From an uncultured virus (IMG/VR IMGVR_UViG_3300037086_000332) (taxonomy: Duplodnaviria > Heunggongvirae > Uroviricota > Caudoviricetes): a stretch of DNA of 20,000 nucleotides. The position numbers were made by a program, and so were the translations under genes. The notes under the pieces are model-generated. The model searched no databases. It saw only the letters and a list, made by a program, of their open reading frames with translations, and had not been told where the DNA came from. Positions 890-14,668 of this stretch are shown piece after piece; within the stretch, counting starts at the first letter, position 1, and each line of letters opens with the position of its first letter. The stretch lies in IMG/VR virus record IMGVR_UViG_3300037086_000332; one strand, 5' to 3'.

Positions 890-916
890 ATGCAGTATTG
901 GTATGGAACACAATGA
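890..916 (+). CDS. 8-aa leader mini-ORF (MQYWYGTQ)
   Basis: ATG 890 follows AAGATAA+4 nt. Its TGA (914-916) overlaps ATG 913 of the next gene (ATGA). Confidence 0.4.
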   Translation: MQYWYGTQ

Positions 917-1149
917 GTCATTGGTATGTAGAAAAAGAAGCAGATCTTGAATATCCTTTCTATGTCATAGAAACATATGGAGAGGAAAAGGGTCCTTACG
1001 TGCCTCTCACCATCTGCAGCTACATTTCCCTTATGATGTGGTTCTGGAGAGAAAGAGAGAAGTTGGACCTAGTGTTTGCAGAAAAATATATTCCAGAAGA
1101 TGCCGACTATCGAGCAGTAGTGAAAATATTGTTTGGGGAGAAGAGATGA
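913..1149 (+). CDS. small paralog-family protein (78 aa)
   Basis: Start MSHWY. C-terminus KYIPEDADYRAVVKILFGEKR. ATGA overlap with next gene. Confidence 0.8.
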   Translation: MSHWYVEKEADLEYPFYVIETYGEEKGPYVPLTICSYISLMMWFWREREKLDLVFAEKYIPEDADYRAVVKILFGEKR

Positions 1150-1394
1150 ACGTCGGATCTTGGTATAAATGTATTGTTAAAGACTCTGTCTTCATAGACG
1201 CTCATCTTTATGTTTTCGCAGATGGCGGTGGAGGAGAATATAATGTTGTGTGGTTGGATCGGCCTGACAACTTCAAGGCTCGACGCAGAATAGTTTATGG
1301 TGAGGATCTTCGCGACAGTCAATGGGAAAAATATATTCCTTCACAGAAGGAGCTTCATCTCGCTATAGCCATAGTTTTTGGAAAAGAGAGATAA
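1146..1394 (+). CDS. small paralog-family protein (82 aa)
   Basis: Start moved to ATGA-overlap ATG (MNVGSWY) with SD GGGGAG. C-terminus KYIPSQKELHLAIAIVFGKER. Confidence 0.85.
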   Translation: MNVGSWYKCIVKDSVFIDAHLYVFADGGGGEYNVVWLDRPDNFKARRRIVYGEDLRDSQWEKYIPSQKELHLAIAIVFGKER

Positions 1395-1672
1395 TGTTTA
1401 AACACTTCAGATGGCAACAGCTTGATACCCTATACACCAAACGTGATGGAGAGATTCAATGTATTTTTGGAAGAGTTGGAACTCGGGACGGTATTGCTAT
1501 GTATGATGGAGTAGTCATTCTTGCAAACAATAATGGCGCCCAGTTGCTCATCAATGAACCATTTTACATAAATAATGCCGACAAGAAGACTAAACACTAT
1601 CCAACCGAGCGTGATATGCAAATTGTAATGTGCACGTTCTGGGAAGAAGTAGCGTGGGACACGTGGGGATGA
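1394..1672 (+). CDS. small paralog-family protein (92 aa)
   Basis: TAATG overlap start MFKHFRW. C-terminus HYPTERDMQIVMCTFWEE. Confidence 0.75.
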   Translation: MFKHFRWQQLDTLYTKRDGEIQCIFGRVGTRDGIAMYDGVVILANNNGAQLLINEPFYINNADKKTKHYPTERDMQIVMCTFWEEVAWDTWG

Positions 1673-1920
1673 AACTAGGAACTTGGTTGCTAAATATAAA
1701 CCATGACTCACCACTTTGGATGGAACGGATTTATATCATTGCCAAAGGTGAGAGAAACATGTTTGGTGAACAATTGTATGAAATAGTTGAGTTTGGAGAT
1801 GGGTGGAACAGATATAATTTGAGCCGAAGTTTAGGTAGATTGAAAGAATGGAAAAAATGGGAGCCGTCTGAGACCGATCTTCAAGGTGCTGTAAAAACAT
1901 TGTTTGGAGAAAGCTATTGA
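1669..1920 (+). CDS. small paralog-family protein (83 aa)
   Basis: ATGA start MKLGTW. C-terminus KWEPSETDLQGAVKTLFGESY. Confidence 0.85.
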   Translation: MKLGTWLLNINHDSPLWMERIYIIAKGERNMFGEQLYEIVEFGDGWNRYNLSRSLGRLKEWKKWEPSETDLQGAVKTLFGESY

Positions 1921-2174
1921 ATCACGAAGGAACATGGATTTCTACTAACAGCATGGCCTACTATCTCATTCATTATCTGGGCCTTACTGGTGGTCAGAGA
2001 CCATTTTACAGCTGTATCAAGCTTGGATTCATGAAAATGAAGAGTGATGACCACGACGAGCGTGCTGATACACACAGTAGTGGATGGATCTTCTCTGATA
2101 AAATAGAAAACTACGACAAATACGATCCTGATGAGAACGATCTACATCGATCAATCAAGGCGGTGTTTGCATGA
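1917..2174 (+). CDS. small paralog-family protein (85 aa)
   Basis: TTG start overlapping upstream TGA with GGAG SD. MNHEGTW...KYDPDENDLHRSIKAVFA. Confidence 0.8.
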   Translation: MNHEGTWISTNSMAYYLIHYLGLTGGQRPFYSCIKLGFMKMKSDDHDERADTHSSGWIFSDKIENYDKYDPDENDLHRSIKAVFA

Positions 2175-2413
2175 TGAAACCATATCGATACTACAGCAGC
2201 CCACACGTCACTGAGAAAGTCTATCTGATGGACGTGTATGCCGTCACTCCTGCTGGCGGGAAATATTGGAACTACATGGATGTAACTGATGAGGGTGCAT
2301 CATTGGTAAGCGGGCCATTAGTATTGCAAGAAGATTGGACTATTCAGAAGATTTCTCGAGAAATAAAGAAAGAATTGATACGTGCTTGGTTTAAGGGCAT
2401 GGAGAAAAAATGA
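2171..2413 (+). CDS. small paralog-family protein, divergent (80 aa)
   Basis: ATGA overlap. C-terminal helix KKELIRAWFKG. Confidence 0.75.
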   Translation: MMKPYRYYSSPHVTEKVYLMDVYAVTPAGGKYWNYMDVTDEGASLVSGPLVLQEDWTIQKISREIKKELIRAWFKGMEKK

Positions 2414-2442
2414 GCAGGGGTAGTACGGGACACATAGAATGA
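2410..2442 (+). CDS. 10-aa bridging mini-ORF (MSRGSTGHIE)
   Basis: ATG 2410 overlaps upstream TGA, and its TGA 2440-2442 overlaps downstream ATG 2439. Confidence 0.4.
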   Translation: MSRGSTGHIE

Positions 2443-2708
2443 AAAATAGAGTGGGAAATTGGTGGCAAAACAACAATGATAACTCTCAATATGAAGGAGA
2501 ATATGTCTACGTGTTGGCATTTAGACCTGAGAAATCAAAGCCTCATGATATGAGGTGGGATGTGATTTGGTTCAGTGAGCTAGATTCCTCAAAAACTCAA
2601 ATGTTTTCAGCAGTGGATCTCACATTTGTTAAATGGACAGCCTACAGTCCTACAACTGATGATCTTCATGATGCCGTACTATGCCTTTTTAGAGACAAAA
2701 AGAAATGA
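2439..2708 (+). CDS. small paralog-family protein (89 aa)
   Basis: MKNRVGNWW...YVYVL...AYSPTTDDLHDAVLCLFRD. Confidence 0.85.
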   Translation: MKNRVGNWWQNNNDNSQYEGEYVYVLAFRPEKSKPHDMRWDVIWFSELDSSKTQMFSAVDLTFVKWTAYSPTTDDLHDAVLCLFRDKKK

Positions 2709-2971
2709 AACACGACTTTCAGCTCGCTAGTATAGGACATTGGTTTTTTACTCCAAAGTATATTGGACCACCTCGACACGTATACGTAGTTGATTATGAA
2801 TTCGATCAACACAGTGGAATGCATCACTTTACTCTCATTGAGTTTTACTCTGAACATGACATCAGCTTTGGAACCAATAGTGTTGGTCCAGACGAGGATT
2901 GGACAAAATATGAGCCTACAGAACTTGACTATAGAATAGCCATCAAGAAAATATGTGAGGACATAAGATGA
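2705..2971 (+). CDS. small paralog-family protein (88 aa)
   Basis: IGHWF...HVYVV...DWTKYEPTELDYRIAIKKICED. ATGA overlaps. Confidence 0.85.
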   Translation: MKHDFQLASIGHWFFTPKYIGPPRHVYVVDYEFDQHSGMHHFTLIEFYSEHDISFGTNSVGPDEDWTKYEPTELDYRIAIKKICEDIR

Positions 2972-3210
2972 CACCAAGACAGGCAATGAAAAAGAGAGTA
3001 TGGCTCTATAAAGATGGATGGTACGACTTCTTAGATAGGATCGAAAATGGAAATGCCATCACTTGGCGCTATATGGAAAAAGACCATAACTTTAGAGTAT
3101 TCGAAAATTGGGACGCTAATGATGATCTCTTAGACTATGATGGCTGTGTCGAGAAGAAGCCACCAGAACAACGCAAAGTAATAGAAGCTCTCTTTGAGAG
3201 ACTGAGATGA
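2968..3210 (+). CDS. small paralog-family protein, divergent (80 aa)
   Basis: ATGA overlaps. C-terminus QRKVIEALFERLR. Confidence 0.8.
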   Translation: MTPRQAMKKRVWLYKDGWYDFLDRIENGNAITWRYMEKDHNFRVFENWDANDDLLDYDGCVEKKPPEQRKVIEALFERLR

Positions 3211-3452
3211 TAAAACCAAAAGATCGAATTGGACATTGGTTCAGAAATGATGGAGCATATCATCCCATTCATGCTTATGTCGTAAAGTACTTAGGCATGG
3301 ATGCCAATATTCATCTTTTTGATGCCATCGAATTTGATGAAGATAATCATGATGTGGTATTACGACATGAAATCACTGGGGCCGACGGCTGGGTTCCATA
3401 TAAACCAGGAAACACAGATCTTCAAGAGGCAGTAATGGCGGTATTCGAATGA
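3207..3452 (+). CDS. small paralog-family protein (81 aa)
   Basis: RIGHWF...HAYVV...WVPYKPGNTDLQEAVMAVFE. Confidence 0.85.
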   Translation: MIKPKDRIGHWFRNDGAYHPIHAYVVKYLGMDANIHLFDAIEFDEDNHDVVLRHEITGADGWVPYKPGNTDLQEAVMAVFE

Positions 3453-3685
3453 GGCCAACTACTTGGGAAGGAAAATGGTTCAATAGTTCTAGTCTGTGGT
3501 ATTGCTATATAATTAGCTTTAAGCGCAAAAAGATGGAAGGCTATGTCTTTGATCTAGTGGCCTCTGAAAGCAAAGGAAGTGCCTACTATCATGATGAATG
3601 GGCTTTTACTGACCTTTCCAGTTTGAGACCATACCAGCCCGCCAAGCGACAAAAACATATGGTCGTCAAGGCGGTGTTTGAATGA
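3449..3685 (+). CDS. small paralog-family protein (78 aa)
   Basis: WEGKWF...YCYII...PYQPAKRQKHMVVKAVFE. Confidence 0.85.
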   Translation: MRPTTWEGKWFNSSSLWYCYIISFKRKKMEGYVFDLVASESKGSAYYHDEWAFTDLSSLRPYQPAKRQKHMVVKAVFE

Positions 3686-3936
3686 ATCGATATGCTGTGT
3701 GGGTGGGACAGGGACCAGAGACGGGGAATTGGGCTATTGACCTTGTAGAAGTAGATAAGAACTTTAAGTTTCTTGAGTTTAAAGGTATTTTTGTACAAGA
3801 GATCATGAAAGGTGGTCCAAATCCAGGCGCTCTCAAAAAAGGAGCTCAAGTCACGTGGGACAACTACAACAACGTGCTAGAAACAATAGAAGAAGCATGC
3901 CAAGAAGTGGTGAGACGGCTGTGGACACCACTCTGA
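3682..3936 (+). CDS. small hypothetical protein, tandem paralog of 3956..4204
   Basis: 39 of 82 positions identical to the next ORF in an ungapped hand alignment. Confidence 0.85.
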   Translation: MNRYAVWVGQGPETGNWAIDLVEVDKNFKFLEFKGIFVQEIMKGGPNPGALKKGAQVTWDNYNNVLETIEEACQEVVRRLWTPL

Positions 3937-3959
3937 TGTTTAAAAGGATCAGATCATGA
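3936..3959 (+). CDS. 7-aa bridging mini-ORF (MFKRIRS)
   Basis: TGATG overlap at 3934-3938, and TGA 3957-3959 overlaps ATG 3956. Confidence 0.35.
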   Translation: MFKRIRS

Positions 3960-4204
3960 AACGATATGGCATATGGGTTGGAAGAGAAAAAGAATATGGT
4001 AGTTGGGTCATTGACCAACTAGAAGTGCCAAAATATCATACCTCATTCAACTTTAAAGGCAAATTTGTTTCAGAATTCATGGGTGGTGGTTCTGCCCCCA
4101 CCATTTTCAAGAAAGGAAAGGAAGTAGATTGGGAGAACTACCATAATTTAGTTGATTCACTTGAGGAAGCTTATAAAGAAGTAATAAGGCAGTTATACCG
4201 ATGA
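3956..4204 (+). CDS. small hypothetical protein, tandem paralog of 3682..3936
   Basis: MKRYGIWVG...LEEAYKEVIRQLYR. AAGGA SD upstream. Confidence 0.85.
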   Translation: MKRYGIWVGREKEYGSWVIDQLEVPKYHTSFNFKGKFVSEFMGGGSAPTIFKKGKEVDWENYHNLVDSLEEAYKEVIRQLYR

Positions 4205-4512
4205 ACAAGTACACTAAAGAAGCTAAAAAAATAGTAGGTAATTGGTATGTACAAAACAACGGTCCTTATGATAAGGGACTCACGATACAGAAGCCATTGC
4301 GAGTTTACGACTATGAAGGTGAGACAAAATCCACAAATGAAAAGATTACCATTGAAGATAGATACTTTCAGTTCTTCATCGAAAAGAACGATCTTGTTTA
4401 TCACGACAGTGGCGAAATGCACTACGTCTACAACAATCTTGCCAAACCAAACCATTTTAGGCGCGTCATCAAACTGCTTTTCAAATGCGAAGAATTTGAG
4501 GTGGATCTATGA
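4201..4512 (+). CDS. small paralog-family protein (103 aa)
   Basis: KIVGNWYV...PNHFRRVIKLLF. ATGA overlaps. Confidence 0.8.
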   Translation: MNKYTKEAKKIVGNWYVQNNGPYDKGLTIQKPLRVYDYEGETKSTNEKITIEDRYFQFFIEKNDLVYHDSGEMHYVYNNLAKPNHFRRVIKLLFKCEEFEVDL

Positions 4513-4763
4513 ATTGGAAGGGAATGGAAGGACAGTGGTGGAACAACATCAGTGTCGACATGAGGCATCCTCATTGCTATCTCATTCGTTTTCTTAGAGA
4601 ACAAGGAGATGGCAAGGCTTCATTTGAAATGTTGGCCTATATTCCTCAACTCGGAATGACCTATCTTTCCTCTGAAAGTATCGCAAATTTGAAAAACTAC
4701 AAGCACTATGTTCCAATGAATATAGATCTTCGAAGTGGAATCAGAACGGTGTTTGGAGAATAG
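4509..4763 (+). CDS. small paralog-family protein (84 aa)
   Basis: WKGMEGQWW...CYLIRFL...HYVPMNIDLRSGIRTVFGE. Confidence 0.85.
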   Translation: MNWKGMEGQWWNNISVDMRHPHCYLIRFLREQGDGKASFEMLAYIPQLGMTYLSSESIANLKNYKHYVPMNIDLRSGIRTVFGE

Positions 4764-4764
4764 A

Positions 4765-5034
4765 ATGGCGACATGGCATGATTACGAAAGACAGTGGTTA
4801 ATCCCAAAGAAAGATAAACACACTGGTCGGGATGATTTTCGTCTTTATATTGTATTCGCTCAAGGACCACGAATGGATACAATTTTTGTATTTGACAGGG
4901 GTCCAGCTTCTTATCTCACACAAGAGAAGAGAGGCAGTGAGGACACGATCAACAGCTATGAAGCATATCAACCAAAAGCTGAAGACTATCGTAAAGCAGT
5001 TGAAGCAGTGTTTGGTGAATGGATGAAGCGATGA
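4765..5034 (+). CDS. small paralog-family protein (89 aa)
   Basis: Start moved to ATG 4765 (TAG-A-ATG, GGAG SD). WHDYERQWL...AYQPKAEDYRKAVEAVFGE. Confidence 0.85.
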   Translation: MATWHDYERQWLIPKKDKHTGRDDFRLYIVFAQGPRMDTIFVFDRGPASYLTQEKRGSEDTINSYEAYQPKAEDYRKAVEAVFGEWMKR

Positions 5035-5303
5035 TCTTTATTGGAACGAACAATTGGTATTCTACCTATTATGGCAGTAGAGATGAAACAAAGCGGCAGC
5101 TTATTTATGTTGTGAAACTTCATAGAACGCGAACGAAAGACTCTGCCATGGTCGTTTGGTATCAGCCAGAACATAGTTGGACTTTCTTTGAAGAAGTTCC
5201 GGTTCCCAATTGGGATTGGGAGAAATATGAGCCTACAGAAAGAGACTGGCAAGTGGTACTTGTTTCGATATTTCAGCATTGGGGTAAGATAGATGACACC
5301 TAA
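5031..5303 (+). CDS. small paralog-family protein (90 aa)
   Basis: ATGA start. LIYVV...DWEKYEPTERDWQVVLVSIFQH. Confidence 0.8.
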   Translation: MIFIGTNNWYSTYYGSRDETKRQLIYVVKLHRTRTKDSAMVVWYQPEHSWTFFEEVPVPNWDWEKYEPTERDWQVVLVSIFQHWGKIDDT

Positions 5304-5571
5304 AGAAAGAGAAGGGCATTGGTATATCAACAATGATCCACAAAACTATTCTACATACAACACCTATGCATATCTCATCAATCATGTTGGGAGTGGACAT
5401 GCTTTAGAATTTTATGAATTGGTTTATTTTGATGTGGCCGTAAGCCCACACAAGATTCATTTTCATGAGAAAGAGGGATTGGGTGAAATGAGAAATTGGA
5501 TAGAGTATGAACCTCTTAAACGAGATCTTCGAGTTGTGGTTCATGCCGTCTTTGGGAATACAAATGGCTGA
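5293..5571 (+). CDS. small paralog-family protein (92 aa)
   Basis: REGHWYI...YAYLI...WIEYEPLKRDLRVVVHAVFGN. Confidence 0.85.
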   Translation: MTPKEREGHWYINNDPQNYSTYNTYAYLINHVGSGHALEFYELVYFDVAVSPHKIHFHEKEGLGEMRNWIEYEPLKRDLRVVVHAVFGNTNG

Positions 5572-5857
5572 TTTCACATGGACTTCCATGGAAGGCCAAT
5601 GGTTGAGAGGTGAAACCAGTCCAACATGGTCTTCTGCCATTAAACATGTTTCTCATATTTACATTGTTCGATTTATCTCAGAGAGAAATGGTACCCAAGG
5701 TCTTCGACCAACTGTTTCAATGATTCATATGGTGATGGGTGGCAGAAAGCAGTATGTTGATAACATGGAGATTGGTAGTATTGGAAACTACAAGGCATAT
5801 GAACCAGACAGAGGTGATCTTCACATGGCCATCAAATCAATCTTTGATGTTCGTTGA
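5564..5857 (+). CDS. small paralog-family protein (97 aa)
   Basis: Start moved to ATG 5564. WTSMEGQWL...IYIVRFI...YKAYEPDRGDLHMAIKSIFD. Confidence 0.85.
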   Translation: MADFTWTSMEGQWLRGETSPTWSSAIKHVSHIYIVRFISERNGTQGLRPTVSMIHMVMGGRKQYVDNMEIGSIGNYKAYEPDRGDLHMAIKSIFDVR

Positions 5858-6084
5858 TCGCTTGGAAGTCCAGCCTTTCTAGCACATGTTGAACACATAC
5901 CATGAGACACCAGCCCACCCTCAGCGTCTCCTTTTGAGATAGTTCGCCCACACCACGCACAAACGGTCTTTACGGCCTCAAACAGATGCTCTCTCAAATC
6001 CTGTTTCTTAGCCTCTCTAATAAGACGAGTTATTCGTTTGGTGGTAATAGAGATGCGCTCTTCCAATAGTTCCTGCTTTGTCAT
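5821..6084 (-). CDS. small CxxC...CxxC zinc-finger protein
   Basis: CAWC...SHGMCSTC. SD GGAAGG and AAGATAA upstream. Confidence 0.7.
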   Translation of the reverse strand: MTKQELLEERISITTKRITRLIREAKKQDLREHLFEAVKTVCAWCGRTISKGDAEGGLVSHGMCSTCARKAGLPSDQRTSKIDLMAM

Positions 6085-6111
6085 GATGCTTTCCTTCCAA
6101 ATGGTATAATA

Positions 6112-6186: not shown

Positions 6187-6190
6187 TAAT

Positions 6191-6457
6191 ATGAAATCAA
6201 TTACGATAGGAGATTGGTTTGTTCCAAGTATTCCTGGTGCCCTAATCCTTGAATACATAGTCAAAGTTGGAACTATCAAAATTGAATATATCTCCTATCA
6301 TTTTAGTTTTCATTCATCCTCTCTTTCTCGTGGAACTAAGAAAGAAAAGTTGATCGTTTATCAATCAGCAATGCAGATGGGTGGAAGAAAACACGCTGGA
6401 AAGAGAGATTTTGAAAGAATGATACAGTGTATTTTCAGTGCCAAAGAAATAGAATAG
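6191..6457 (+). CDS. small paralog-family protein (88 aa)
   Basis: ITIGDWFV...KRDFERMIQCIFS. Confidence 0.8.
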   Translation: MKSITIGDWFVPSIPGALILEYIVKVGTIKIEYISYHFSFHSSSLSRGTKKEKLIVYQSAMQMGGRKHAGKRDFERMIQCIFSAKEIE

Positions 6458-6468
6458 TGAGGCAAAAT

Positions 6469-6906
6469 ATGACCAAAGATTTAGGAAGTATGTTTGAGGC
6501 TAAAGACTCAAAAAAGAAAGAGCCACAAAAGGCGTACAGTGGAGACATTGAGAAACAAACACTCAATAACACAAACTTCAGAGAGGTGCTGTTCACTGGA
6601 GAACATGCTCAACTTGTTGTCATGTCTTTAAAGAAAGACGAAGAGATTGGAGATGAAGTTCATCAACACGTCGATCAATTCTTTAGAATTGAAAGGGGCA
6701 AAGCAAAGTTTGTCCTGAATGAGAAGGAGATACATGTCGTTGGCAATGGAGAGGCCGTGGTTATTCCTGCTGGAACCTATCACAACGTAATCAACGTTGG
6801 TGATGGACAACTTAAACTCTACACCGTCTATTCTCCTCCTAACCATCCTCCCAATACAATTCACAAAACGAAAGCTGATGCTGAGAAAGCTGAAAAGAAG
6901 AAATAA
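6469..6906 (+). CDS. cupin-domain protein (Cupin_2 / mannose-6-phosphate isomerase-like)
   Basis: Both cupin motifs are visible: IGDEVHQHVDQFFRIERG and GEAVVIPAGTYHNVIN, followed by LKLYTVYSPPNHP. SD GAGG before ATG 6469 (in-frame GTG 6457 is an alternative start). Confidence 0.9.
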   Translation: MTKDLGSMFEAKDSKKKEPQKAYSGDIEKQTLNNTNFREVLFTGEHAQLVVMSLKKDEEIGDEVHQHVDQFFRIERGKAKFVLNEKEIHVVGNGEAVVIPAGTYHNVINVGDGQLKLYTVYSPPNHPPNTIHKTKADAEKAEKKK

Positions 6907-7205
6907 TGGAAGTCTCCAATGCGTGGGAAGCACCCAATAAAACAGCCGGAAGTTGGCTCTATTGTGGCACTCGCTATCTCAAACGAGGAGAACAACACGC
7001 ATGGTATGGAGAGTATCGCAGAATAAAAAAGATTTACACTTTCAAAGGACAACAGAGAGTCCAATACAATTCATTTTGGGTTTGTGATAACTACTGTTTT
7101 CATGATAGCGGAAACCTTCCTTTCGATGAATTCAGAGGACGAGCTGTTATAGATAAAGATATTCGAACAGAAATAGAAAACATCTTTACATTGGGTGGCA
7201 AATGA
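6906..7205 (+). CDS. small paralog-family protein, divergent (99 aa)
   Basis: TAATG overlap. AGSWLY...DIRTEIENIFT. Confidence 0.7.
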   Translation: MEVSNAWEAPNKTAGSWLYCGTRYLKRGEQHAWYGEYRRIKKIYTFKGQQRVQYNSFWVCDNYCFHDSGNLPFDEFRGRAVIDKDIRTEIENIFTLGGK

Positions 7206-7513
7206 AATCTTTTGTAAAAAGAACGAAGAGAATAAAACAAGAAGGTATGCCAAAGGTTGGACAGTGGTATGTTCAATGGGAAGATACTTGGAAAAATTTA
7301 TTTTACGTCCTTAGAACTGAGAATGACCTTGCAAACTACGTGACTGCTAAAGGTTTCATTATGAGTTATTCCAATAGAACTTCTACTTGGCACGAAAAAA
7401 TTACGATCTCCATGACCGGATGGCACAGTGGCACGCTCGAATACGCTGATATAAACAATTTTGTTGACGCAATCAAGTACTTGTTTGAAACTGTTTACGA
7501 GGATCCATCGTGA
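7202..7513 (+). CDS. small paralog-family protein (103 aa)
   Basis: PKVGQWYV...LFYVL...NNFVDAIKYLFE. Confidence 0.8.
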   Translation: MKSFVKRTKRIKQEGMPKVGQWYVQWEDTWKNLFYVLRTENDLANYVTAKGFIMSYSNRTSTWHEKITISMTGWHSGTLEYADINNFVDAIKYLFETVYEDPS

Positions 7514-7767
7514 AAATAGGCGATTGGGTCATAGGGGTAGACAATGAACTAGGTGTCATTTATAAGGTGTTGGGTTTTCCTCTTGTGAGAAAAGAAGAAG
7601 ATGTATTCACTATGAGATACTGCAGACTTCTTGATGGGGCCGAGGCACGCGAATCAAGGCAATACAAAGACTATTTGACTGGCAGAGAGTTTAAACCAGC
7701 AAAGGACTCCGACTTGCAAGGTTTTATCATGGACATCTTCGAAGAAAACAAAAGAATACAATCATGA
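7510..7767 (+). CDS. small paralog-family protein (85 aa)
   Basis: GTGA overlap. MKIGDWV...FKPAKDSDLQGFIMDIFE. Confidence 0.85.
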   Translation: MKIGDWVIGVDNELGVIYKVLGFPLVRKEEDVFTMRYCRLLDGAEARESRQYKDYLTGREFKPAKDSDLQGFIMDIFEENKRIQS

Positions 7768-8018
7768 CATATGATGTTGGCAACTTTTATCTTGGCACTT
7801 CTGCATCCACAGTAGGAAAACTATACCTCTGTACTGGTGGCAATTCAACTCAAGGAGAGTTTATTCGTATTGCTCCGCCTGATGGATCTCTCACCCCTTA
7901 TAAGATCCATTGGGATGAACTTGGGTAACCCGTCAACGCTCCTCAATTTATGAGAATAGCTGTTCAAGAGTTGTTTGTGTTTGGTGGTCCAGGTGGGAAC
8001 CTAGGTCGACGGTCTTAG
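7764..8018 (+). pseudogene. paralog-family member interrupted by in-frame TAA at 7926-7928
   Basis: Not in the ORF track. ATGA start, MTYDVGNFY...KLYLCTGG...IHWDELG*PVNAPQFMRIAVQELF...; the family C-terminal helix continues in frame after the stop. Confidence 0.7.
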
Positions 8019-8270
8019 AGAATTTGAATTAACCAATCTGCTATTGTCTCCAAAAACTCTCATCAATAAATTACGCATTTGAAATTCAAATAATTTATGA
8101 AGATTAGCATGTCTCATACTGTGCCAGCCATAGACATCAGAACGAGATTGTAGTTCATCAACAAAAAGACCCACGTTTGCTATCTCTTGATAGTCCATAC
8201 AAACATAAAACCTCGGATGGGCTTTTGAACTTGAAACGCTGGCATATATTCCGCCCAATTCTCTCTTCAT
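8001..8270 (-). CDS. small paralog-family protein, R-x-x-G-x-x-Y/Cys subfamily (89 aa)
   Basis: RELGGIY...FYVCMD...MRNLLMRVFGD. Confidence 0.8.
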   Translation of the reverse strand: MKRELGGIYASVSSSKAHPRFYVCMDYQEIANVGLFVDELQSRSDVYGWHSMRHANLHKLFEFQMRNLLMRVFGDNSRLVNSNSLRPST

Positions 8271-8503
8271 CTAGCATCTCCAAACACTTTTCTAAGAAGT
8301 ACTTTCATAGTTCCTTTATCTATGTTGTCAATGTCTCCTTCTTGCATTTTGTACCAACTCTTCTCGTAAGCATCAGCATAATACTCATCTATAAAGAAAG
8401 CATGTCGATCATCTCCAAGATCCATACATATGTACCACGTGGCCTCACTTCTGTTGGATTCTTCATCAGTTATTTTATAAATGTGACCCACTTGTCTTAC
8501 CAT
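8267..8503 (-). CDS. small paralog-family protein, R-x-x-G-x-x-Y/Cys subfamily (78 aa)
   Basis: RQVGHIY...WYICMD...MKVLLRKVFGD. Confidence 0.85.
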   Translation of the reverse strand: MVRQVGHIYKITDEESNRSEATWYICMDLGDDRHAFFIDEYYADAYEKSWYKMQEGDIDNIDKGTMKVLLRKVFGDAR

Positions 8504-8739
8504 TTCTCAAACAACCTTATCAGAATGAGTTTTCTCTGTCGTACATCAATTATTTTTAATGGAATTCGTTTTACATCATCCCAATACAATTCTATTGGTT
8601 GTTCCGTGATAATGGCAATAAATTTTGCCTTGAAATGACTGGGTGATTCAACGCAGAGCAGAAAAAATTCGGGTCTCTCTGGTCGGACATAAAAATACCC
8701 TACCTCTCTGACCAGTGGAACAATGTTTTTCCGTCTCAT
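8497..8739 (-). CDS. small paralog-family protein, R-x-x-G-x-x-Y/Cys subfamily (80 aa)
   Basis: REVGYFY...FLLCVE...YWDDV...LILIRLFE. Confidence 0.8.
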   Translation of the reverse strand: MRRKNIVPLVREVGYFYVRPERPEFFLLCVESPSHFKAKFIAIITEQPIELYWDDVKRIPLKIIDVRQRKLILIRLFEKW

Positions 8740-8787: not shown

Positions 8788-9123
8788 ATGAACAAAGAAG
8801 GTGATTGGATTGGAATGAATGCTGGGACTCAAGGTGCAACTAATATAAGAATGGCTAAGATTCTTAGAAACTATTATGAGTGGAGAGGACACACATATCA
8901 AGATTTATTGTGGGTTGTCGCAGATAATTCTCCGCATATTAAGCCTGGAGTTTCTATTGAACGAAAGCGAGTAAAGACTAATCCAAAGTTTGAATCGGAT
9001 ATTATTAACCCACCGACTGAAGAATGGATGTTCAGGGCAGTAATGAAAATATTGTTTGATGTGCCATCAAACAATGTTGAATGGAACGACACTCTTTCAA
9101 CCTACCACCACACAACGTTTTAG
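8788..9123 (+). CDS. small paralog-family protein (111 aa)
   Basis: SD AAGGAG. KEGDWI...PPTEEWMFRAVMKILFD. Confidence 0.8.
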   Translation: MNKEGDWIGMNAGTQGATNIRMAKILRNYYEWRGHTYQDLLWVVADNSPHIKPGVSIERKRVKTNPKFESDIINPPTEEWMFRAVMKILFDVPSNNVEWNDTLSTYHHTTF

Positions 9124-9257: not shown

Positions 9258-9536
9258 TTACCAATATTTCGTTTCATTCTGTTTTCCAAACAAAGCTTTG
9301 AACCACTGCTGCCTCTCCCACTCATTGATCTCTGCTATATTAAATTGATACATTTCGTCCCAGTAGCCCAAATGGCCCCATGGCGCAAACAATGAGAAGA
9401 AACGGCCCTCACTCTTATCACCTACGGTCAAACAGAGATGAACTCTGCCCTTGGTGTCACCTATCATCCCTCTCTGGTAGAACTTACCTACCTTGCGCCT
9501 AACTGGAGTTGATCGAAGCTTACGTTTTCTTCTCAT
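9258..9536 (-). CDS. small paralog-family protein, R-x-x-G-x-x-Y/Cys subfamily (92 aa)
   Basis: RKVGKFY...VHLCLT...YWDEM...QQWFKALFG. SD GAGG. Confidence 0.8.
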   Translation of the reverse strand: MRRKRKLRSTPVRRKVGKFYQRGMIGDTKGRVHLCLTVGDKSEGRFFSLFAPWGHLGYWDEMYQFNIAEINEWERQQWFKALFGKQNETKYW

Positions 9537-9740: not shown

Positions 9741-10154
9741 CTATTTGCCTCTCTTGTTGGGCTCGTAGAAGAAATATAATCGAACGGATGCTTTGAGCTG
9801 TCTGACCATGTCACAATCTTCCTTCATTTGCATGATTTTGTGGCACATATTGTGGCATCTCTTACAAAGTCTTTGAAGATCCTCTCTGCTCTCTGCTCCA
9901 AGAGAGTGGTAATGACGATGATGCCAAGAAAACGCTCTAACCATCTTCTTCTCTCCAGTCTTAGTCCTGCGCCAATGTGGAGTATTACATATTTCGCACC
10001 GTTCATCCTCTCGAGCCAGTGTAAAGATTAATGTTTTCCAATGTTCTGAGAGAAGATAGGCCTTCCCTTGTCCACCATAGGATGGACTGCGAGACCTTCT
10101 GGATCTCGTCTTTTTGAAGCTCTTTGGCTTCTTTTCTGTTTTTCGTTTTCTCAT
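9741..10154 (-). CDS. HNH endonuclease (zinc-binding)
   Basis: YLLSEHWK...RCEIC...WHHRHYHSLGAESREDLQRLCKRCHNMCH with a basic N-terminus. Start at the ATGA-overlap ATG 10154. Confidence 0.85.
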   Translation of the reverse strand: MRKRKTEKKPKSFKKTRSRRSRSPSYGGQGKAYLLSEHWKTLIFTLAREDERCEICNTPHWRRTKTGEKKMVRAFSWHHRHYHSLGAESREDLQRLCKRCHNMCHKIMQMKEDCDMVRQLKASVRLYFFYEPNKRGK

Positions 10155-10393
10155 ATTCCTTCTTTCTTTAACCATTCTTCATCCTCAAATAAAATCATTA
10201 GCGCATTATGATACTCGTAGAGAGCAGGGGTGTACCTAAAAAACTCTTCTTCTGGTGAAAATGACCAATTTTTTATACCACCATCTCTGAGAGAGATTAC
10301 TGTCAATGTGGAGTTGTCTCTCGACAACACCCAACAAACTTTTCCTATTTCTAATTGTACCCAAGTATACGGTTTTACATCATGTACAAACAT
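10151..10393 (-). CDS. small paralog-family protein (80 aa)
   Basis: VKPYTWV...RYTPALYEYHNALMILFED. Confidence 0.8.
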   Translation of the reverse strand: MFVHDVKPYTWVQLEIGKVCWVLSRDNSTLTVISLRDGGIKNWSFSPEEEFFRYTPALYEYHNALMILFEDEEWLKKEGI

Positions 10394-10806
10394 TATTCAT
10401 TCCAATCAAACTTTTCTACACCATATGCTAACATTAATCTGAACACTAGTCTGAAATCTTCGTTAGTAGCCAGTCTCATTTCCGAGGCGCTACCAATCAT
10501 AGTTTTCTTTATTCTTCTTTCAAACTGAATTGAACACGAACCAAATTTGTTGGGTCCTTCTCTGAACCTACCAACCACTAGATCAGACACATAAAAGCTG
10601 GTAGGATTTCCATGCTGTTCGAGAGGCAGAAACAATTGAATATATCTATGATCAGCTTGAATGGTCACCCAAGATTTTGTTTTTAAGGCCTGTGACAGGA
10701 TTGCATTTTCTCTGTCCAGTTCTGAACCATGGCCTTGAGTTCTCATGTGAGCTACCATATCAGCGTCTGAGGGACTGATTATTGATTTGATAATTGGTGG
10801 TTTCAA
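10393..10806 (-). CDS. hypothetical protein, probable extended family member (137 aa)
   Basis: TTGA overlap start. C-terminus ATNEDFRLVFRLML. Confidence 0.7.
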   Translation of the reverse strand: MKPPIIKSIISPSDADMVAHMRTQGHGSELDRENAILSQALKTKSWVTIQADHRYIQLFLPLEQHGNPTSFYVSDLVVGRFREGPNKFGSCSIQFERRIKKTMIGSASEMRLATNEDFRLVFRLMLAYGVEKFDWNE

Positions 10807-11072
10807 TCATCCCTCCATTCAAACTTTTTGCAGTCAAAGAGCAACTTTATTGCCTTTTGTGCTGCTGCTGGATGGATCACATCGTATTCCTCTTCAAGTT
10901 TTTTCATTGAAATGTTTTTATGTAATTCAGAACCAAACCAAAATTGTTTGTCGTAAATAGTTAGCGCCCTCAGATCAGCAGTCTTGTCAGCTATTCGAGT
11001 GATTTGGAACAATCCAATTCGACCCATTATCATTGTTGCTACTGGATCTGTTAACCAATCACCCACTTTCAT
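10803..11072 (-). CDS. small paralog-family protein (89 aa)
   Basis: MKVGDWL...LFQITRI...AQKAIKLLFD. Confidence 0.85.
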   Translation of the reverse strand: MKVGDWLTDPVATMIMGRIGLFQITRIADKTADLRALTIYDKQFWFGSELHKNISMKKLEEEYDVIHPAAAQKAIKLLFDCKKFEWRDD

Positions 11073-11356
11073 AGATCTATGTCCTGTTCAAAGATTCCCA
11101 TTATCACTCCACCCATGTCCTGAACTGTTGGTTTATAATCCGCTCCCATAGTTTGAATCCAAAGAAAATCTCCTCTCTCTAGAGGAGGACGTTTGATATG
11201 AGCGAAGCGAACTGAGTGGTCTGAAAAAACATTAGCAATCCACATCCATTCACCGGGTCTTAATTGCCCATCAATAACATTGGAATCATCCATAATATAA
11301 TAAGCTTCTTTAATTTTTTTGAACCATTGACCTTTAAGTGGTGGATATTTTGTCAT
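11069..11356 (-). CDS. small paralog-family protein (95 aa)
   Basis: LKGQWF...AYYIM...DYKPTVQDMGGVIMGIFE. Confidence 0.85.
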   Translation of the reverse strand: MTKYPPLKGQWFKKIKEAYYIMDDSNVIDGQLRPGEWMWIANVFSDHSVRFAHIKRPPLERGDFLWIQTMGADYKPTVQDMGGVIMGIFEQDIDL

Positions 11357-11850
11357 TTATCTTTCTCGATCGCAACGTAGACCGACTGTCGATAACCATT
11401 GGGCCACATCTGTAATGATTGCATGGTTCGATGCCAACCTTCAACCAATTCATACTTTCCATCAGTTCGAAGTGTCATAATAATCGGCTCCTTGCTCACA
11501 CCAGATTTTATTAATCTCCGTGTTGCTCCAGCCTGACGTTCTGGATCGTGATAAACTCCCATTGGATTCTCGGTCCCAAATTTTCTCTTTTTCATCCACC
11601 CAATTGTATCTGAACCAAAAGAATCCAAAGTGAGAGACACTGTTTCAAACTTCCAGACAACATCTTTGGCACTCTTATATCCGATACCTCTAGCCCAATC
11701 ACCAACAAAGAGACCAAACTTGTTTGGTTCATCTTTGAGGTTACTGTAGACAAAATCTTTTACGACATATGCTGGCCACGTCGGTAAAGATTGCTGGAAA
11801 AACTCTAGGGTTTTTTTTCTAGTTTCTAGTAAAATAGGTTCTAGTTTCAT
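11353..11850 (-). CDS. ParB/sulfiredoxin N-terminal-like domain protein
   Basis: IKSGVSKEPIIMTLRTDGKYELVEGWHR matches the ParBc PI-x-V...Y-x-x-x-(D/E)G-x-HR core. No HTH is seen. Confidence 0.7.
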   Translation of the reverse strand: MKLEPILLETRKKTLEFFQQSLPTWPAYVVKDFVYSNLKDEPNKFGLFVGDWARGIGYKSAKDVVWKFETVSLTLDSFGSDTIGWMKKRKFGTENPMGVYHDPERQAGATRRLIKSGVSKEPIIMTLRTDGKYELVEGWHRTMQSLQMWPNGYRQSVYVAIEKDK

Positions 11851-12104
11851 TTTGCTGTCCCAAAAATATGTCGAATAACTCCAGGTATACCATCTGGCCA
11901 GGGATGTACATATTCTTTTCCAAAAGTTCGAAGATCTCTGGTTCGTGGAAATCCAGGAGTTTTGTCGCTGTAAAACACTTTAGTAACAGTGACTTCAACA
12001 CTATCCTCTGCATGAGTTGTTTTCTTGTAAATTAAACCTCTGACCAAGAGTCTGAGAGCGCCATTTTCTGAAACGGCTACATAGACTCTATCTCCCTTTT
12101 TCAT
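11847..12104 (-). CDS. small paralog-family protein, MKxGDxV subfamily (85 aa)
   Basis: MKKGDRVYV...LLVRGLI...PGVIRHIFG. Confidence 0.85.
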   Translation of the reverse strand: MKKGDRVYVAVSENGALRLLVRGLIYKKTTHAEDSVEVTVTKVFYSDKTPGFPRTRDLRTFGKEYVHPWPDGIPGVIRHIFGTAK

Positions 12105-12364
12105 TTACTTAACCCCCATCCAATCCATCCAAAAATTCTTCTCACAAAAGCATGATAAGTTTCTTCTGTATATATACAGTAAAGAGGAACCTTGAAATGA
12201 GAATGTGGACGAGCGTGCTCATGTTCCTTAAGATGAAATGTAGTTATTGGCCTGACTACCACATCAGTGGTATATTCTGAGCGAGTGTCATCTATCTCAG
12301 CCCTACAAACCAATTCAACATATGGCTCATTTTCAAAAACCCACACAATATCTCCTCTTTTCAT
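12101..12364 (-). CDS. small paralog-family protein, MKxGDxV subfamily (87 aa)
   Basis: MKRGDIVWV...LVCRAEI...HAFVRRIFG. Confidence 0.85.
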   Translation of the reverse strand: MKRGDIVWVFENEPYVELVCRAEIDDTRSEYTTDVVVRPITTFHLKEHEHARPHSHFKVPLYCIYTEETYHAFVRRIFGWIGWGLSK

Positions 12365-12609
12365 ATTACATCCTCGTCTCCAAATAAAATTCGTATAGCT
12401 TTCTGAATATTGGACTCAACGATTCGATAACCTCTATATGTAAGAAGGGGCCAATTGTCCTCCTCGTAATCTATTCTTTCTTCCCTAACAATCATCGTAG
12501 TATAGAAAACAAGCGCATTGCCTTGGCCATCTGTATCGAGTTTTGTGATCTTATGAAAAGCAATGTAGGCATTTGTTTCACCGCCATAAAACCAATCTCC
12601 CACTTTCAT
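12361..12609 (-). CDS. small paralog-family protein (82 aa)
   Basis: MKVGDWFY...FHKITKL...IQKAIRILFGD. Confidence 0.85.
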   Translation of the reverse strand: MKVGDWFYGGETNAYIAFHKITKLDTDGQGNALVFYTTMIVREERIDYEEDNWPLLTYRGYRIVESNIQKAIRILFGDEDVI

Positions 12610-12885: not shown

Positions 12886-13155
12886 CTAATCCCTAGCAAA
12901 TATGGCTTCAACAACAGCATGCGTGGCGTTCAAAGCGTGTACGAATGGCTGCCATATGCGGTGTGGGTCTGTAGCTTTTTTAGGCTCTGAGCTCACAAAG
13001 CTATAGATCTCTATGGGTTTGACAATAATGTAACCTGGCTCTATTATATCAGCAGATCTTGGCACTGGATCAGCATTAATCACTTCGCCCTTAAAGACCA
13101 AGTCGTAGGTTTTTTCTGGACAATAAACTACATATACAATATCACCAATTTTCAT
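12886..13155 (-). CDS. small paralog-family protein, MKxGDxV subfamily (89 aa)
   Basis: MKIGDIVYVV...LVFKGEV...HAVVEAIFA. Confidence 0.85.
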   Translation of the reverse strand: MKIGDIVYVVYCPEKTYDLVFKGEVINADPVPRSADIIEPGYIIVKPIEIYSFVSSEPKKATDPHRIWQPFVHALNATHAVVEAIFARD

Positions 13156-13451
13156 CTTACATTTGACCTCGCTCTTTCAAAAATTGATGTGACTACATTA
13201 TGAAAATCGGCCTCAGTCGGAACATAAGACTCCATCTCACCTGATACAGAAAACTTACGCAAGAATTGACCATCGTGTCCCTCTGGAATAACGACATACT
13301 CAAAATAGGGATATGTATTGGGGTGACTATCAATAGTATCAAGAAACCTAATGAGATAGAGAATTGCATTCTTGTTTCCATTCCCTTCAAAGGGTGGCAA
13401 ATTAAGAAGCCAGGTTCCTTCATATTTTTTGTATGGTTTTCTAAGTTCCAT
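13152..13451 (-). CDS. small paralog-family protein (99 aa)
   Basis: YEGTWL...LYLIRFL...SYVPTEADFHNVVTSIFE, closest to the 4509 and 5564 members. Confidence 0.85.
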   Translation of the reverse strand: MELRKPYKKYEGTWLLNLPPFEGNGNKNAILYLIRFLDTIDSHPNTYPYFEYVVIPEGHDGQFLRKFSVSGEMESYVPTEADFHNVVTSIFERARSNVR

Positions 13452-13459
13452 TATTTTTC

Positions 13460-13699
13460 CTATCCAACTTCATTCTTTGCCTCTCTGACCTCTGCTGCAC
13501 CAAAGATAGCCTTCACGAGACCTTTCAAATCTTGCAAATCCGCTACACGAAATTCAGTCAAACTCTCACTATGAATAGAGTTGATGTGGAGAATATCACC
13601 ATTGTATCTCCAATGTCTAGCTCTCTTTCCGAGCGACTTAAATTTCCAATGATGGGCAAATGGAGCCCAGTCGGCATTGTTTTGTGCATAATAAATCAT
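13460..13699 (-). CDS. small paralog-family protein, divergent (79 aa)
   Basis: C-terminus DLKGLVKAIFG. Shares W-x-F...Y(N/D)G...HSES with the neighbouring 13696 ORF. Confidence 0.75.
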   Translation of the reverse strand: MIYYAQNNADWAPFAHHWKFKSLGKRARHWRYNGDILHINSIHSESLTEFRVADLQDLKGLVKAIFGAAEVREAKNEVG

Positions 13700-13935
13700 T
13701 GATTGAATCCTGTCCGATCCTCTATCTCATTGGCTTCAAAAACAAATCGAACCAATCTTCGTACGAACTCCATGTCCTCAATGTCTTGCCAATTGGTTAT
13801 AGCCAATCCACTTTCAGAATGGTAAATCAATTTGTTACCATCATAATGTACAAAATAAGTGCCATGCGATCTTTGAAACTGCCAACTTTGCCAAATCTTG
13901 ATGTTTGAGGCGCTGGTGCCATAGAGCAATCTCAT
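13696..13935 (-). CDS. small paralog-family protein, divergent (79 aa)
   Basis: ATGA-overlap start MRLLY. C-terminus FVRRLVRFVFE. Confidence 0.75.
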   Translation of the reverse strand: MRLLYGTSASNIKIWQSWQFQRSHGTYFVHYDGNKLIYHSESGLAITNWQDIEDMEFVRRLVRFVFEANEIEDRTGFNQ

Positions 13936-14231
13936 TTCCATCCTTCTCCAAAAATAGTCTCAATAGCCATACGAATAAGGGTGTCATATCCAGTCACTTT
14001 AGATTCCAAATCATTTTCTTCAGTTCCAAGATAGTGTGAAAGTCGTTCTTGTTCAATGATCGTAATCTCTTCCATATCACTAAACCATCTGCCCTGTTCT
14101 TCTATAAAACCAACACTATCGGCAAACAGTATTTCATTAGGCCCTTTTCTTACATTGTATACATAAATTAGTCTACGGGGTACGCCTTTGTGTGAGTACC
14201 ACTTGCCGACGAGATTTGTTGAGGATTTCAT
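13932..14231 (-). CDS. small paralog-family protein (99 aa)
   Basis: LVGKWY...LIYVY...LIRMAIETIFGE. Confidence 0.85.
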   Translation of the reverse strand: MKSSTNLVGKWYSHKGVPRRLIYVYNVRKGPNEILFADSVGFIEEQGRWFSDMEEITIIEQERLSHYLGTEENDLESKVTGYDTLIRMAIETIFGEGWK

Positions 14232-14238
14232 TCTAGGA

Positions 14239-14245
14239 TTATCTT
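14239..14245 (-). promoter_or_regulatory. AAGATAA putative phage promoter motif
   Basis: TAAGATAA-tcctaga-ATG 14231 within a 23-bp intergenic gap. Confidence 0.6.
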
Positions 14246-14254
14246 ACGAGAGGG

Positions 14255-14668
14255 CTATCGAACGAAGATGAGTTGGATGATTTCTTTGCTTAGATTGGTC
14301 ACTGCTTTTTTGATGTTTTTACACTTGAACACGCTATTTTTACTTACTACCCAAAACATTGTACCATCAGTCTTTTCTTTTGGAAGATCATGATCTGTCA
14401 CTACTCCGGTCTCTGCATCCCAGGCGAAGAGAACATGACTCATGAAAATCTCTGCCAGATCACCCATATCCCCGATCTTTTCGACTTTTCCAATCAAAAA
14501 ATACTCTACACCATCAGTCGAATTCAATTTTTTTATAGTGCAGTCAAAAACATACATGCTATCACTCTTTTCAAACTCCACAACATCTTGTCCCTCAGGA
14601 AATTTGAACACCTTTAGCCTCGAGGTTTCTTCTTGGATCCTTGATTTCAGAGTAATTGGGGTTATCAT
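14255..14668 (-). CDS. hypothetical protein (137 aa) with family-like C-terminal helix
   Basis: ATGA-coupled to the baseplate gene. Ends LSKEIIQLIFVR. Confidence 0.7.
   Translation of the reverse strand: MITPITLKSRIQEETSRLKVFKFPEGQDVVEFEKSDSMYVFDCTIKKLNSTDGVEYFLIGKVEKIGDMGDLAEIFMSHVLFAWDAETGVVTDHDLPKEKTDGTMFWVVSKNSVFKCKNIKKAVTNLSKEIIQLIFVR

Follow-up and report, generated by a model that had tools for sequence, protein, structure and literature searches.

Two convergent arrays of small genes

The subject of this study is a set of small genes that occupies about 14 kb of a 20,000-nucleotide stretch (hereafter the window, meaning the whole stretch analysed) of IMG/VR record IMGVR_UViG_3300037086_000332, an uncultured virus classified in the Caudoviricetes. 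The gene call gave 48 genes between 898 and 15042, namely 42 small open reading frames (ORFs) of 78-137 amino acids (aa), with the truncated ORF at 19806-20000 left out of the count, and six unrelated genes outside the pattern (5821-6084, 6469-6906, 9741-10175, 11353-11850, 7764-7928 and a LysM-like gene at 14665-15042). They form two convergent arrays: a plus-strand array of 26 genes from 898 to 7928, of which 24 are candidate family ORFs, and a minus-strand array of 20 genes running from 14668 down to 8001. Two genes break the strand rule, the plus gene 8788-9123 within the minus array and the minus gene 5821-6084 within the plus array. The G+C content of the window is about 40%, and the sign of the GC skew flips near 8 kb, where the two arrays meet. 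The packing is tight and translationally coupled: the next start lies at most 15 nt from the stop in 35 of 41 family-type genes, mostly as ATGA overlaps. At the DNA level, the window had no match among isolated phages; promoter and terminator scans of it gave no more sites than in shuffled sequences, and tRNA and Rfam scans returned no matches. The initial annotation had described the small ORFs as diverged proteins whose middles cannot be aligned and which share a C-terminal amphipathic helix, read as a variable domain carrying a constant docking tail.

One family of small proteins and its tail

An all-against-all phmmer comparison connected about 13 of the ORFs, and an iterated hidden Markov model (HMM) settled on 17. 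An HMM built with 62 relatives encoded outside the window (see below) detected 18 of the 42 ORFs at 29-75 bits, whereas the best of 528 shuffled or reversed controls reached 9.0. These 18 core ORFs align end to end, with a GxW strand, a tyrosine-hydrophobic-hydrophobic strand and two more strands, followed by W/Y-x-x-Y-x-P-x-x-x-D-L-x-x-A-V-x-x-hydrophobic-F. The middles are thus not unalignable throughout, since significant homology runs over the full length of 18 ORFs. When the remaining 24 small ORFs were compared with the family profile by hhalign, 19 of them exceeded 13.8, the highest value among 120 shuffles, and six unrelated window genes scored at most 12.7. Four of the 19 (1394-1672, 2171-2413, 4201-4512 and 7202-7513) align over 64-79 columns, and most of the others in the tail only. 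The supported copies, 18 firm and 19 further, come to roughly 37 over about 14 kb, which establishes a multicopy family. No match for the family was found in Pfam, PHROGs, NCBIfam or PADLOC (the last covers defence families, not counter-defence), in agreement with the earlier statement that it is not a described one. A limited literature search found no description of it, and terms for paralogy or duplication are absent from the available text of PMC7162821 and 10.1101/2025.01.14.633092.

The genes are listed below with coordinates, strand and evidence. HMM and hhalign values are scores against the family model and family profile, identities are to counterparts encoded outside the window (P numbers) unless stated otherwise, and AlphaFold2 (AF2) models are given with the predicted local distance difference test (pLDDT) and the predicted template-modelling score (pTM).

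898..1149, +, core member; HMM 47.3 bits; P0006, 78% identity
1146..1394, +, core member; HMM 47.2 bits
1394..1672, +, probable full-length member; hhalign 26.8 over 64 columns (shuffle maximum 13.8)
1669..1920, +, core member; HMM 59.4 bits
1917..2174, +, core member; HMM 59.9 bits; P0022, 54% identity
2171..2413, +, probable full-length member; hhalign 20.5 over 73 columns
2439..2708, +, core member; HMM 72.1 bits; P0021, 57% identity
2705..2971, +, core member; HMM 63.1 bits; P0012 (732-kb contig), 51% identity
2968..3210, +, tail-similar small ORF; hhalign 18.5, C-terminal 40 columns
3207..3452, +, core member; HMM 67.1 bits; P0015, 48% identity
3449..3685, +, core member; HMM 68.0 bits; P0017, 71% identity
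3682..3936, +, paralogue of 3956-4204 (48% identity) with GxW, tail alone not significant; hhalign 11.7, below the shuffle maximum
3956..4204, +, tail-similar small ORF with GxW; hhalign 16.5
4201..4512, +, probable full-length member with GxW; hhalign 22.9 over 79 columns
4509..4763, +, core member, modelled with AF2; HMM 74.6 bits; pLDDT 91.4, pTM 0.80; P0002, 79% identity
4765..5034, +, core member; HMM 54.0 bits; P0026 (732-kb contig), 53% identity
5031..5303, +, core member; HMM 60.1 bits; P0007, 67%, and P0016, 65% identity
5293..5571, +, core member; HMM 74.5 bits; P0027, 41% identity
5564..5857, +, core member; HMM 69.6 bits; P0013 (732-kb contig), 65% identity
5821..6084, -, not family, Cys-rich zinc-ribbon-like ORF; weak PknG_rubred match (E 0.0017, below cut-off); hhalign 12.7
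6191..6457, +, tail-similar small ORF with GxW; hhalign 17.5
6469..6906, +, not family, cupin-domain protein; Pfam Cupin_2 E 9.6e-13; phrog_13536 E 2.8e-31
6906..7205, +, tail-similar small ORF with GxW; hhalign 17.9; phmmer link to 12361-12609, E 1e-4
7202..7513, +, probable full-length member; hhalign 25.4 over 75 columns
7510..7767, +, tail-similar small ORF with MKxGD start; hhalign 18.5, tail only; tail score 17.0, reached by 0/200 shuffles
7764..7928, +, 54-aa ORF without tail, last of the plus array; no anchor motif; phmmer link to 9258-9536, E 2e-5
8001..8270, -, tail-similar small ORF; hhalign 14.7; paralogue of 8267-8503, E 2e-9
8267..8503, -, small ORF with profile similarity in the N-terminal strand region; hhalign 17.6, query 18-39
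8497..8739, -, small ORF, motif by eye only; hhalign 9.1; tail score 7.2, reached by 5/200 shuffles
8788..9123, +, small ORF with GxW and AVMKILF, not significant; hhalign 12.9; tail 21/22 nt identical to 898-1149
9258..9536, -, small basic ORF, not significant; hhalign 13.6
9741..10175, -, not family, HNH-like; phrog_119 E 1.8e-4; Pfam HNH E 0.0058, below cut-off
10151..10393, -, core member; HMM 29.3 bits (best control 9.0)
10393..10806, -, 137-aa ORF with marginal tail similarity; hhalign 14.4; tail score not above shuffles
10803..11072, -, tail-similar small ORF with MKxGD start; hhalign 15.7; blastp link to 4201-4512, E 8e-5
11069..11356, -, core member; HMM 33.5 bits
11353..11850, -, not family, 165-aa protein; no match in four libraries; hhalign 9.1
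11847..12104, -, tail-similar small ORF with MKxGD start; hhalign 16.6
12101..12364, -, tail-similar small ORF with MKxGD start; hhalign 18.5
12361..12609, -, core member with MKxGD start, joining the MKxGD group to the core; HMM 34.4 bits
12606..12920, -, tail-similar small ORF, start uncertain; hhalign 17.8; overlaps the upstream gene by 35 nt
12886..13155, -, tail-similar small ORF with MKxGD start; hhalign 18.0; AF2 pLDDT 57, same strands-then-helix order
13152..13451, -, core member; HMM 59.8 bits; P0040 (732-kb contig), 47% identity
13460..13699, -, tail-similar small ORF; hhalign 22.6; tail score 22.6, reached by 0/200 shuffles
13696..13941, -, tail-similar small ORF; hhalign 17.7; tail matrix not significant
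13932..14231, -, core member; HMM 29.8 bits
14255..14668, -, 137-aa ORF, motif by eye only; hhalign 9.0; tail score reached by 25/200 shuffles
14665..15042, -, context, LysM-like baseplate wedge protein directly upstream of the minus array; phrog_7145 E 3.5e-10; tblastn to a phage baseplate wedge protein, E 7e-5
15027..19790, -, context, 1587-aa protein without a family match; P0080 (1574 aa, 732,019-bp contig), 54% identity

All 42 small ORFs carry a hydrophobic-x-x-hydrophobic-F/W/Y ending (usually F) 1-22 residues before the stop. The tail was scored by a leave-one-out position matrix of 20 columns, from -17 to +2 around the aromatic residue. At least 5 bits were reached by 26 of the 42 ORFs, compared with 1 of 97 small ORFs taken from a pair of unrelated large phages (12 and 85 ORFs; maximum 7.2), and 70 other-frame ORFs of the window scored 5.0 at best. 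The tail score lay above all 200 shuffles of the ORF's own sequence in 20 of 42 cases and was reached by at most 10 of the 200 in 33; the C-terminal anchor was the best-scoring position of the whole protein in 34, and nine ORFs could not be separated from shuffles by the tail alone. The shared C-terminal helix motif proposed earlier was thereby recovered, and the eight peptides quoted for it are all encoded where they had been placed. Tail scores no better than those of shuffled or unrelated small phage ORFs had been named as grounds for giving the family up, and this was not what we found. The proposed N-terminal starts were also present: G-x-W occurs in the first 25 residues of 23 of 42 ORFs (shuffle mean 1.9, maximum 8 in 1000 shuffles), and an MKxGD start in six. 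GxW and the tail occur together in nine non-core ORFs, which points to whole-domain homology.

Two nucleotide-level similarities between copies were observed beside these protein comparisons. A 22-nt tail stretch coding for AV[V/M]KILF (1114-1135 vs 9037-9058) is identical at 21 of 22 nt between 898-1149 and the otherwise unalignable 8788-9123, and it may have been left by gene conversion or by an exchange of tails between copies. The 35 nt at 2896-2930 and at 5213-5247 are 83% identical.

Predicted fold, relatives and age

The core member 4509-4763 was modelled with AF2 from an alignment of 17 paralogues only. The model (pLDDT 91.4, pTM 0.80) shows a short N-terminal helix, five strands (9-13, 22-33, 36-45, 49-58 and 64-67) and a helix at 71-82, and the block 71-80 of this C-terminal helix has a pLDDT of 95. 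Foldseek against the PDB gave a best E of 0.09, to Ssl0352 and Sm proteins, and against BFVD a best E of 0.024, to uncharacterised phage proteins; the ESM Atlas gave no usable match. A wide VIA structure search returned barrels at Z 4.2-6.0, a range that the tool calls common arrangements: the RimP C-domain at Z 6.0, VapX at 5.7, Tudor domains at 5.0-5.3, and Sm/LSm, Hfq-like and KOW domains at 4.3-4.9 (top matches 1ib8_A, Z 6.0; 6zn8_F, 5.7; 7de9_A, 5.3; 7egs_B, 5.2). The model places the family among the SH3-like small barrels, with no finer placement. An earlier guess of a small SH3/KOW-like barrel fits this prediction of five strands plus a helix, whose weak best matches are of the Tudor, Sm, KOW and RimP types. 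With the known SH3-like barrels (the Tudor domain of UvrD/PcrA, Sm/LSm/Hfq, NusG KOW and the RimP C-terminal domain) the family shares a small five-stranded barrel of similar size; it differs in having no sequence-family match to them, and the conserved C-terminal capping helix and the GxW and YxPxxxD motifs are specific to the peat family.

The homodimer prediction for 4509-4763 scored 0.02 against a mark of 0.42, which weighs neither way on self-association. The isoelectric points (pI) of the members range from 4.7 to 10.2, which argues for diversified surfaces and against one uniform nucleic-acid-binding role. The proteins are aromatic-rich and soluble-looking, with no membrane-like segment in any member except one marginal case. 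Two resemblances were rejected. Kelch-repeat similarity, seen with the profile against PDB sequences, was judged spurious, being the sum of short-motif matches (W-x-x-Y-x-P-like) with no significant single stretch. CcdB/MazF-type toxins, which also combine a barrel with a C-terminal helix, appeared in weak rows only (3jsc, template-modelling (TM) value 0.40; 5ck9, TM 0.36; 5wyg, Z 4.4), and had no Pfam or NCBIfam match; the genes beside the members are more family copies and not antitoxin-like ones.

We next turn to relatives outside the window. A word-index search of 5.8 billion clustered proteins found three, and an exhaustive search of 1.84 billion representatives gave 71 proteins at E<=1e-3. 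Of these, 62 are encoded outside the window, all of 73-113 aa with the same architecture, and no longer fused form was among the matches of this length-unrestricted search. Thirty matches were traced to contigs: 13 to one contig of 732,019 bp, four to a 5,127-bp contig (which carries P0007 too), four to a 2,674-bp contig, seven to contigs of 602-10,835 bp, and one (P0045) to the window's own 75,232-bp contig outside the window; the remaining one is the 850-aa repeat protein P0053, which was left out of the 62. The expectation that the family extends beyond the window is borne out by P0045. The 732-kb contig encodes a 1574-aa protein (P0080) that is 54% identical to the 1587-aa protein of the window, and is thus a true genomic relative.

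The copies in these genomes correspond individually. For 12 of the 18 core copies, the best outside match has 41-79% identity, far above the in-window paralogues. Between counterparts (13 pairs), identity is 60% in the barrel and 59% in the tail, compared with 15% and 30% between in-window paralogues (153 pairs). Because counterparts are far closer than paralogues, the duplications predate the split of the genomes and the barrel of each copy is separately constrained. On these sequence comparisons, the repertoire appears to be stable and not a fast accordion.

P0053, which lies on a 5,977-bp ENA contig and not in the window, is an observation of its own. It contains some 14 tandem repeats, each about 35 aa long and holding F-S-P-T-Q-Q-N-I-Y-D-A-V-K-A-I-F-H-P, close to the family tail Y-x-P-T-x-x-D-L-x-x-A-V-K-x-I-F. 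It matches the family profile at E 4.5e-5 via six stretches, and Mycobacteriophage_Gp67 (PF25715) with a summed Pfam score of 32 bits but no single significant stretch. The tail-helix unit may thus exist as an independent module.

No true family relative was found among INPHARED phages, IMG/VR or GTDB genomes, and IMG/VR scans with the 1587-aa protein, P0013 and a three-orthologue alignment found nothing. Relatives are rare in these searches, and the family is confined to a narrow lineage. Two scan hits were discarded: a metagenome locus (L001, 5509-5610; high-GC actinobacterial) was a chance PVPNWDW peptide in an unrelated cellular protein, and a GTDB locus (L002, 10001-10075; a Paceibacterota metagenome-assembled genome) a chance NWDWKKY in a 388-aa enzyme-like protein. 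Peat metagenome runs of at least three other studies contain contigs that match the window sequence itself at 99% identity or more, and all 30 bins are covered by one of them; parts of the window without coverage in runs X3, X4 and X13 are not evidence of absence. The population thus appears widespread and uniform within the peat habitat label, and there was no sign of targeted hypervariation, no differences being listed in contigs from three other peat runs. Short RNA-library contigs (run X13) are identical to the window at seven places, including the array, the LysM-like gene and the 1587-aa gene; they do not show transcription, as DNA carry-over is possible.

Several neighbouring genes lie outside the family. 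At 390-776 on the minus strand, a 128-aa protein resembles anti-sigma-factor antagonists (STAS / SpoIIAA-like; TIGR00377 E 4.1e-5, Pfam SpoIIAA-like E 0.013, both below the curated cut-offs). The 1587-aa protein (15027-19790) matched no family and no PDB sequence; K, T, D and S abound in its N-terminal third, which looks repetitive, and relatives at 34-54% identity occur on five other metagenome contigs, including the 732-kb one. Judged by its neighbour, it is probably a tail or baseplate component. In the region of the HNH-like gene (9791-10094), one RNA-library contig matches with 39 differences in about 300 nt, so that a diverged relative of this gene occurs in peat. The 87-aa Cys-rich ORF (CxxC ... 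CxxC) at 5821-6084 on the minus strand overlaps the end of 5564-5857 by 37 nt and weakly matches the PknG rubredoxin and PtuB models (E 3e-4 to 2e-3).

Possible roles of the barrels and the tail

A question raised by these findings is what the tail and the barrels do. In an alignment of 80 sequences, the tail is the most conserved segment, at 1.96 bits per column compared with 0.77-1.21 elsewhere. The top columns (sequences of 80) are W10 (80), P69 (75), F82 (75), Y67 (67), Y24 (66), G8 (63) and D73 (63), and the conserved tail positions are Y67, P69, T/S70, D73, L74, R/H/Q75, A/V77, V/I78, V/I/L81, F82 and G/E83. Helix positions 74, 77, 78, 81 and 82 are 86-100% hydrophobic and have the spacing of one helix face, and a G or E after the F is kept in 50 of the 80 sequences. 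T/S-x-x-D is a classical capping-box pattern, and helices are commonly terminated by a Gly that follows the last turn; by inference, the two would cap and terminate the tail helix here. Cleavage at F-G-E by a prohead protease was considered and dropped: only one sequence in four or so has G-E there, and the chain of many proteins ends 1-4 residues further on.

We hold with moderate confidence that the arrays are a lineage-specific tandem multigene family of single-domain proteins of about 80-100 aa, each an SH3-like barrel plus a C-terminal helix, in a phage-like peat genome related to the 732-kb contig, and that the copies are old and individually maintained. The genome is probably that of a huge phage from peat. 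Each protein would be a small SH3-like beta-barrel closed by the C-terminal amphipathic helix. The shared tail would be the best-conserved part of this common fold, combining an aromatic-x-x-Y-x-P turn, the T/S-x-x-D capping box, a hydrophobic face (L, A/V, V/I, V/I/L and F at i, i+3, i+4, i+7 and i+8) and a frequent terminal Gly. The barrels have drifted so far apart that most paralogues can hardly be aligned, yet every barrel is conserved between related genomes. Long coupled arrays in a very large phage-like genome, together with the small-domain precedent of phage G (see below), suggest as a working model that the copies are a set of small soluble proteins, binding or regulatory in role, whose barrel surfaces differ. 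This repertoire would most plausibly act on host or phage macromolecules during infection, in take-over or counter-defence, while the helix would mainly hold the scaffold together.

Several points weigh against parts of this reading. Some 15 ORFs match the family profile in the tail only, and five of the 42 lack statistical support (3682-3936, 8497-8739, 8788-9123, 9258-9536 and 14255-14668), although the first of these is the close paralogue of a supported ORF. The fold matches are weak (Z <=6.0; Foldseek E >=0.024), and the only non-core model (12886-13155, from an 8-row alignment) is poor, at pLDDT 57; the common fold is predicted for the modelled core member, not for all 42, and the burial of the helix face is suggested by confidence values and the residue pattern, not by coordinates. 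Terminase and capsid genes were not found in the window, and the phage nature draws on one baseplate-wedge match, the PHROG cupin and the gene density. R/H/Q75 is the sole conserved polar tail residue without an obvious structural role and fits a shared interaction too, as does, equally well, the excess of tail over barrel identity between paralogues. The proposed role is suggested by context and precedent.

In the model of the initial annotation, a variable target-binding barrel is joined to a constant helix that docks on one shared partner or carries a targeting signal, making the proteins an adaptor or effector library. It would explain why the tail is the most conserved segment and is twice as identical as the barrel between paralogues, why some 15 ORFs share the tail alone with the profile, and why D73 and R/H/Q75 are conserved polar residues; the 22-nt tail-coding stretch, 95% identical between two otherwise unalignable genes, and the motif as a stand-alone tandem repeat in the unrelated P0053 fit it as well. 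However, the AF2 model puts the helix, at high confidence, within a single compact domain, the helix positions that are conserved mostly belong to the hydrophobic face or are capping residues, the N-terminal GxW strand goes together with the tail, and 18-22 copies align over their full length. Furthermore, counterparts in related genomes show no excess of tail over barrel identity, no candidate partner was found in the window and no common partner was identified. As originally stated, a variable domain with a constant docking tail is not supported, and we consider this model unlikely. A bolder form, in which a huge-phage lineage keeps a stable repertoire of dozens of mini-binders whose helix is a common handle into one hub (e.g., a host protease or another host or phage machine) while each barrel delivers or blocks a different target, is a long shot. 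If it were true, the family would be a bacterial-virus counterpart of the variable-domain plus docking-motif families of large eukaryotic viruses. The poxvirus ankyrin/PRANC proteins are such a case, in which each genome has many paralogues whose bodies vary and whose C-terminal docking element is better conserved. In contrast, the peat proteins are far smaller and single-domain, their host is presumably bacterial, and tail docking is only a candidate role for them.

Three other explanations were weighed. The proteins could be virion-associated (decoration, internal or ejected) and expressed late with tail genes, and indeed the minus array overlaps the baseplate-wedge-like gene by 4 nt at its start and comes after the 1587-aa gene on the same strand, and the RNA-library contigs fall on both the array and these two genes. 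However, the plus array, with its 24 candidate family ORFs, is convergent and not next to structural genes, no member has a PHROG structural match, and the RNA-library contigs cannot show a transcript, so that we find this very doubtful. Sm/Hfq-like RNA-binding proteins forming homo- or hetero-oligomeric rings, as the eukaryotic Sm/LSm paralogues do, would account for the many weak structural matches to Sm/LSm/Hfq-like chains and for the short N-terminal helix before the five strands of the model. Against this, no member matches Pfam LSM or Hfq at E<=0.01, the matches (Z 4.3-4.9, Foldseek E >=0.09) are no better than those to Tudor, KOW and RimP barrels, the charges run from strongly acidic to basic, unlike a uniform RNA binder, and a C-terminal helix is not known to belong to the Sm fold; we regard such rings as highly improbable. 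Finally, the shared ending could be a nucleotide-level signal, a Shine-Dalgarno site or coupling element for the next gene, since purine-rich codons after the F (TTTGGAGA, TTTGAGGA) are frequent and the F codon lies 6-30 nt before the next start, the position of a ribosome-binding site, in 24 of 35 coupled junctions; this is largely refuted and almost certainly wrong, because the first, second and third positions of 16 tail codons have pairwise nucleotide identities of 0.53, 0.58 and 0.36, which places the conservation on the protein and not the DNA, the motif reaches about 16 codons upstream, and the outside relatives also retain G or E behind the F (50 of 80 sequences). The same ending is kept by genes that no other gene closely follows (e.g., 8001-8270 and 9258-9536), so that a DNA-level signal would at most reinforce the last two residues.

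The soluble binding or regulatory repertoire that we favour has partial parallels in phages. Arrays of small early host-takeover or anti-defence genes, such as the SPO1 host-takeover module and anti-CRISPR loci, are tightly packed and encode mostly unrelated proteins. The peat arrays are likewise tightly packed with small genes, but most of their members share one fold or motif, and no helix-turn-helix (HTH) regulator gene was detected with Pfam. The marks of an anti-CRISPR-like locus were not found: the arrays hold no HTH or other Pfam domain, and PADLOC, with its defence but not counter-defence families, gave nothing for the members. In the available text of Iyer et al. (2021, PMC7824862), Bacillus phage G is described as having about 35 copies of a zinc ribbon, a lineage-specific expansion of a small domain that the authors call unprecedented. 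The likeness lies in dozens of copies of one small domain in a very large phage genome, with a function that is guessed at, and the difference in the domain itself, a zinc ribbon there (PMC7824862) and a beta-barrel plus helix in the peat family. The peat copies form overlapping tandem arrays, and many of them have counterparts in related genomes.

Gene-family expansions are rare in phages, and the phage G zinc ribbons, as presented in the available text of that paper, are the one comparable case found in print (PMC7824862). As phage gene-family expansions go, the peat array is among the larger ones; phenomena of this kind are known, whereas the family, its scale and its architecture are new. 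Old, individually conserved copies imply many distinct functions on one tiny scaffold. The family is well suited to systematic structure prediction and to toxicity and interaction screens, and it could yield a natural set of small binder proteins. Overall, identifying the binding targets would reveal what very large phages use their additional coding capacity for.

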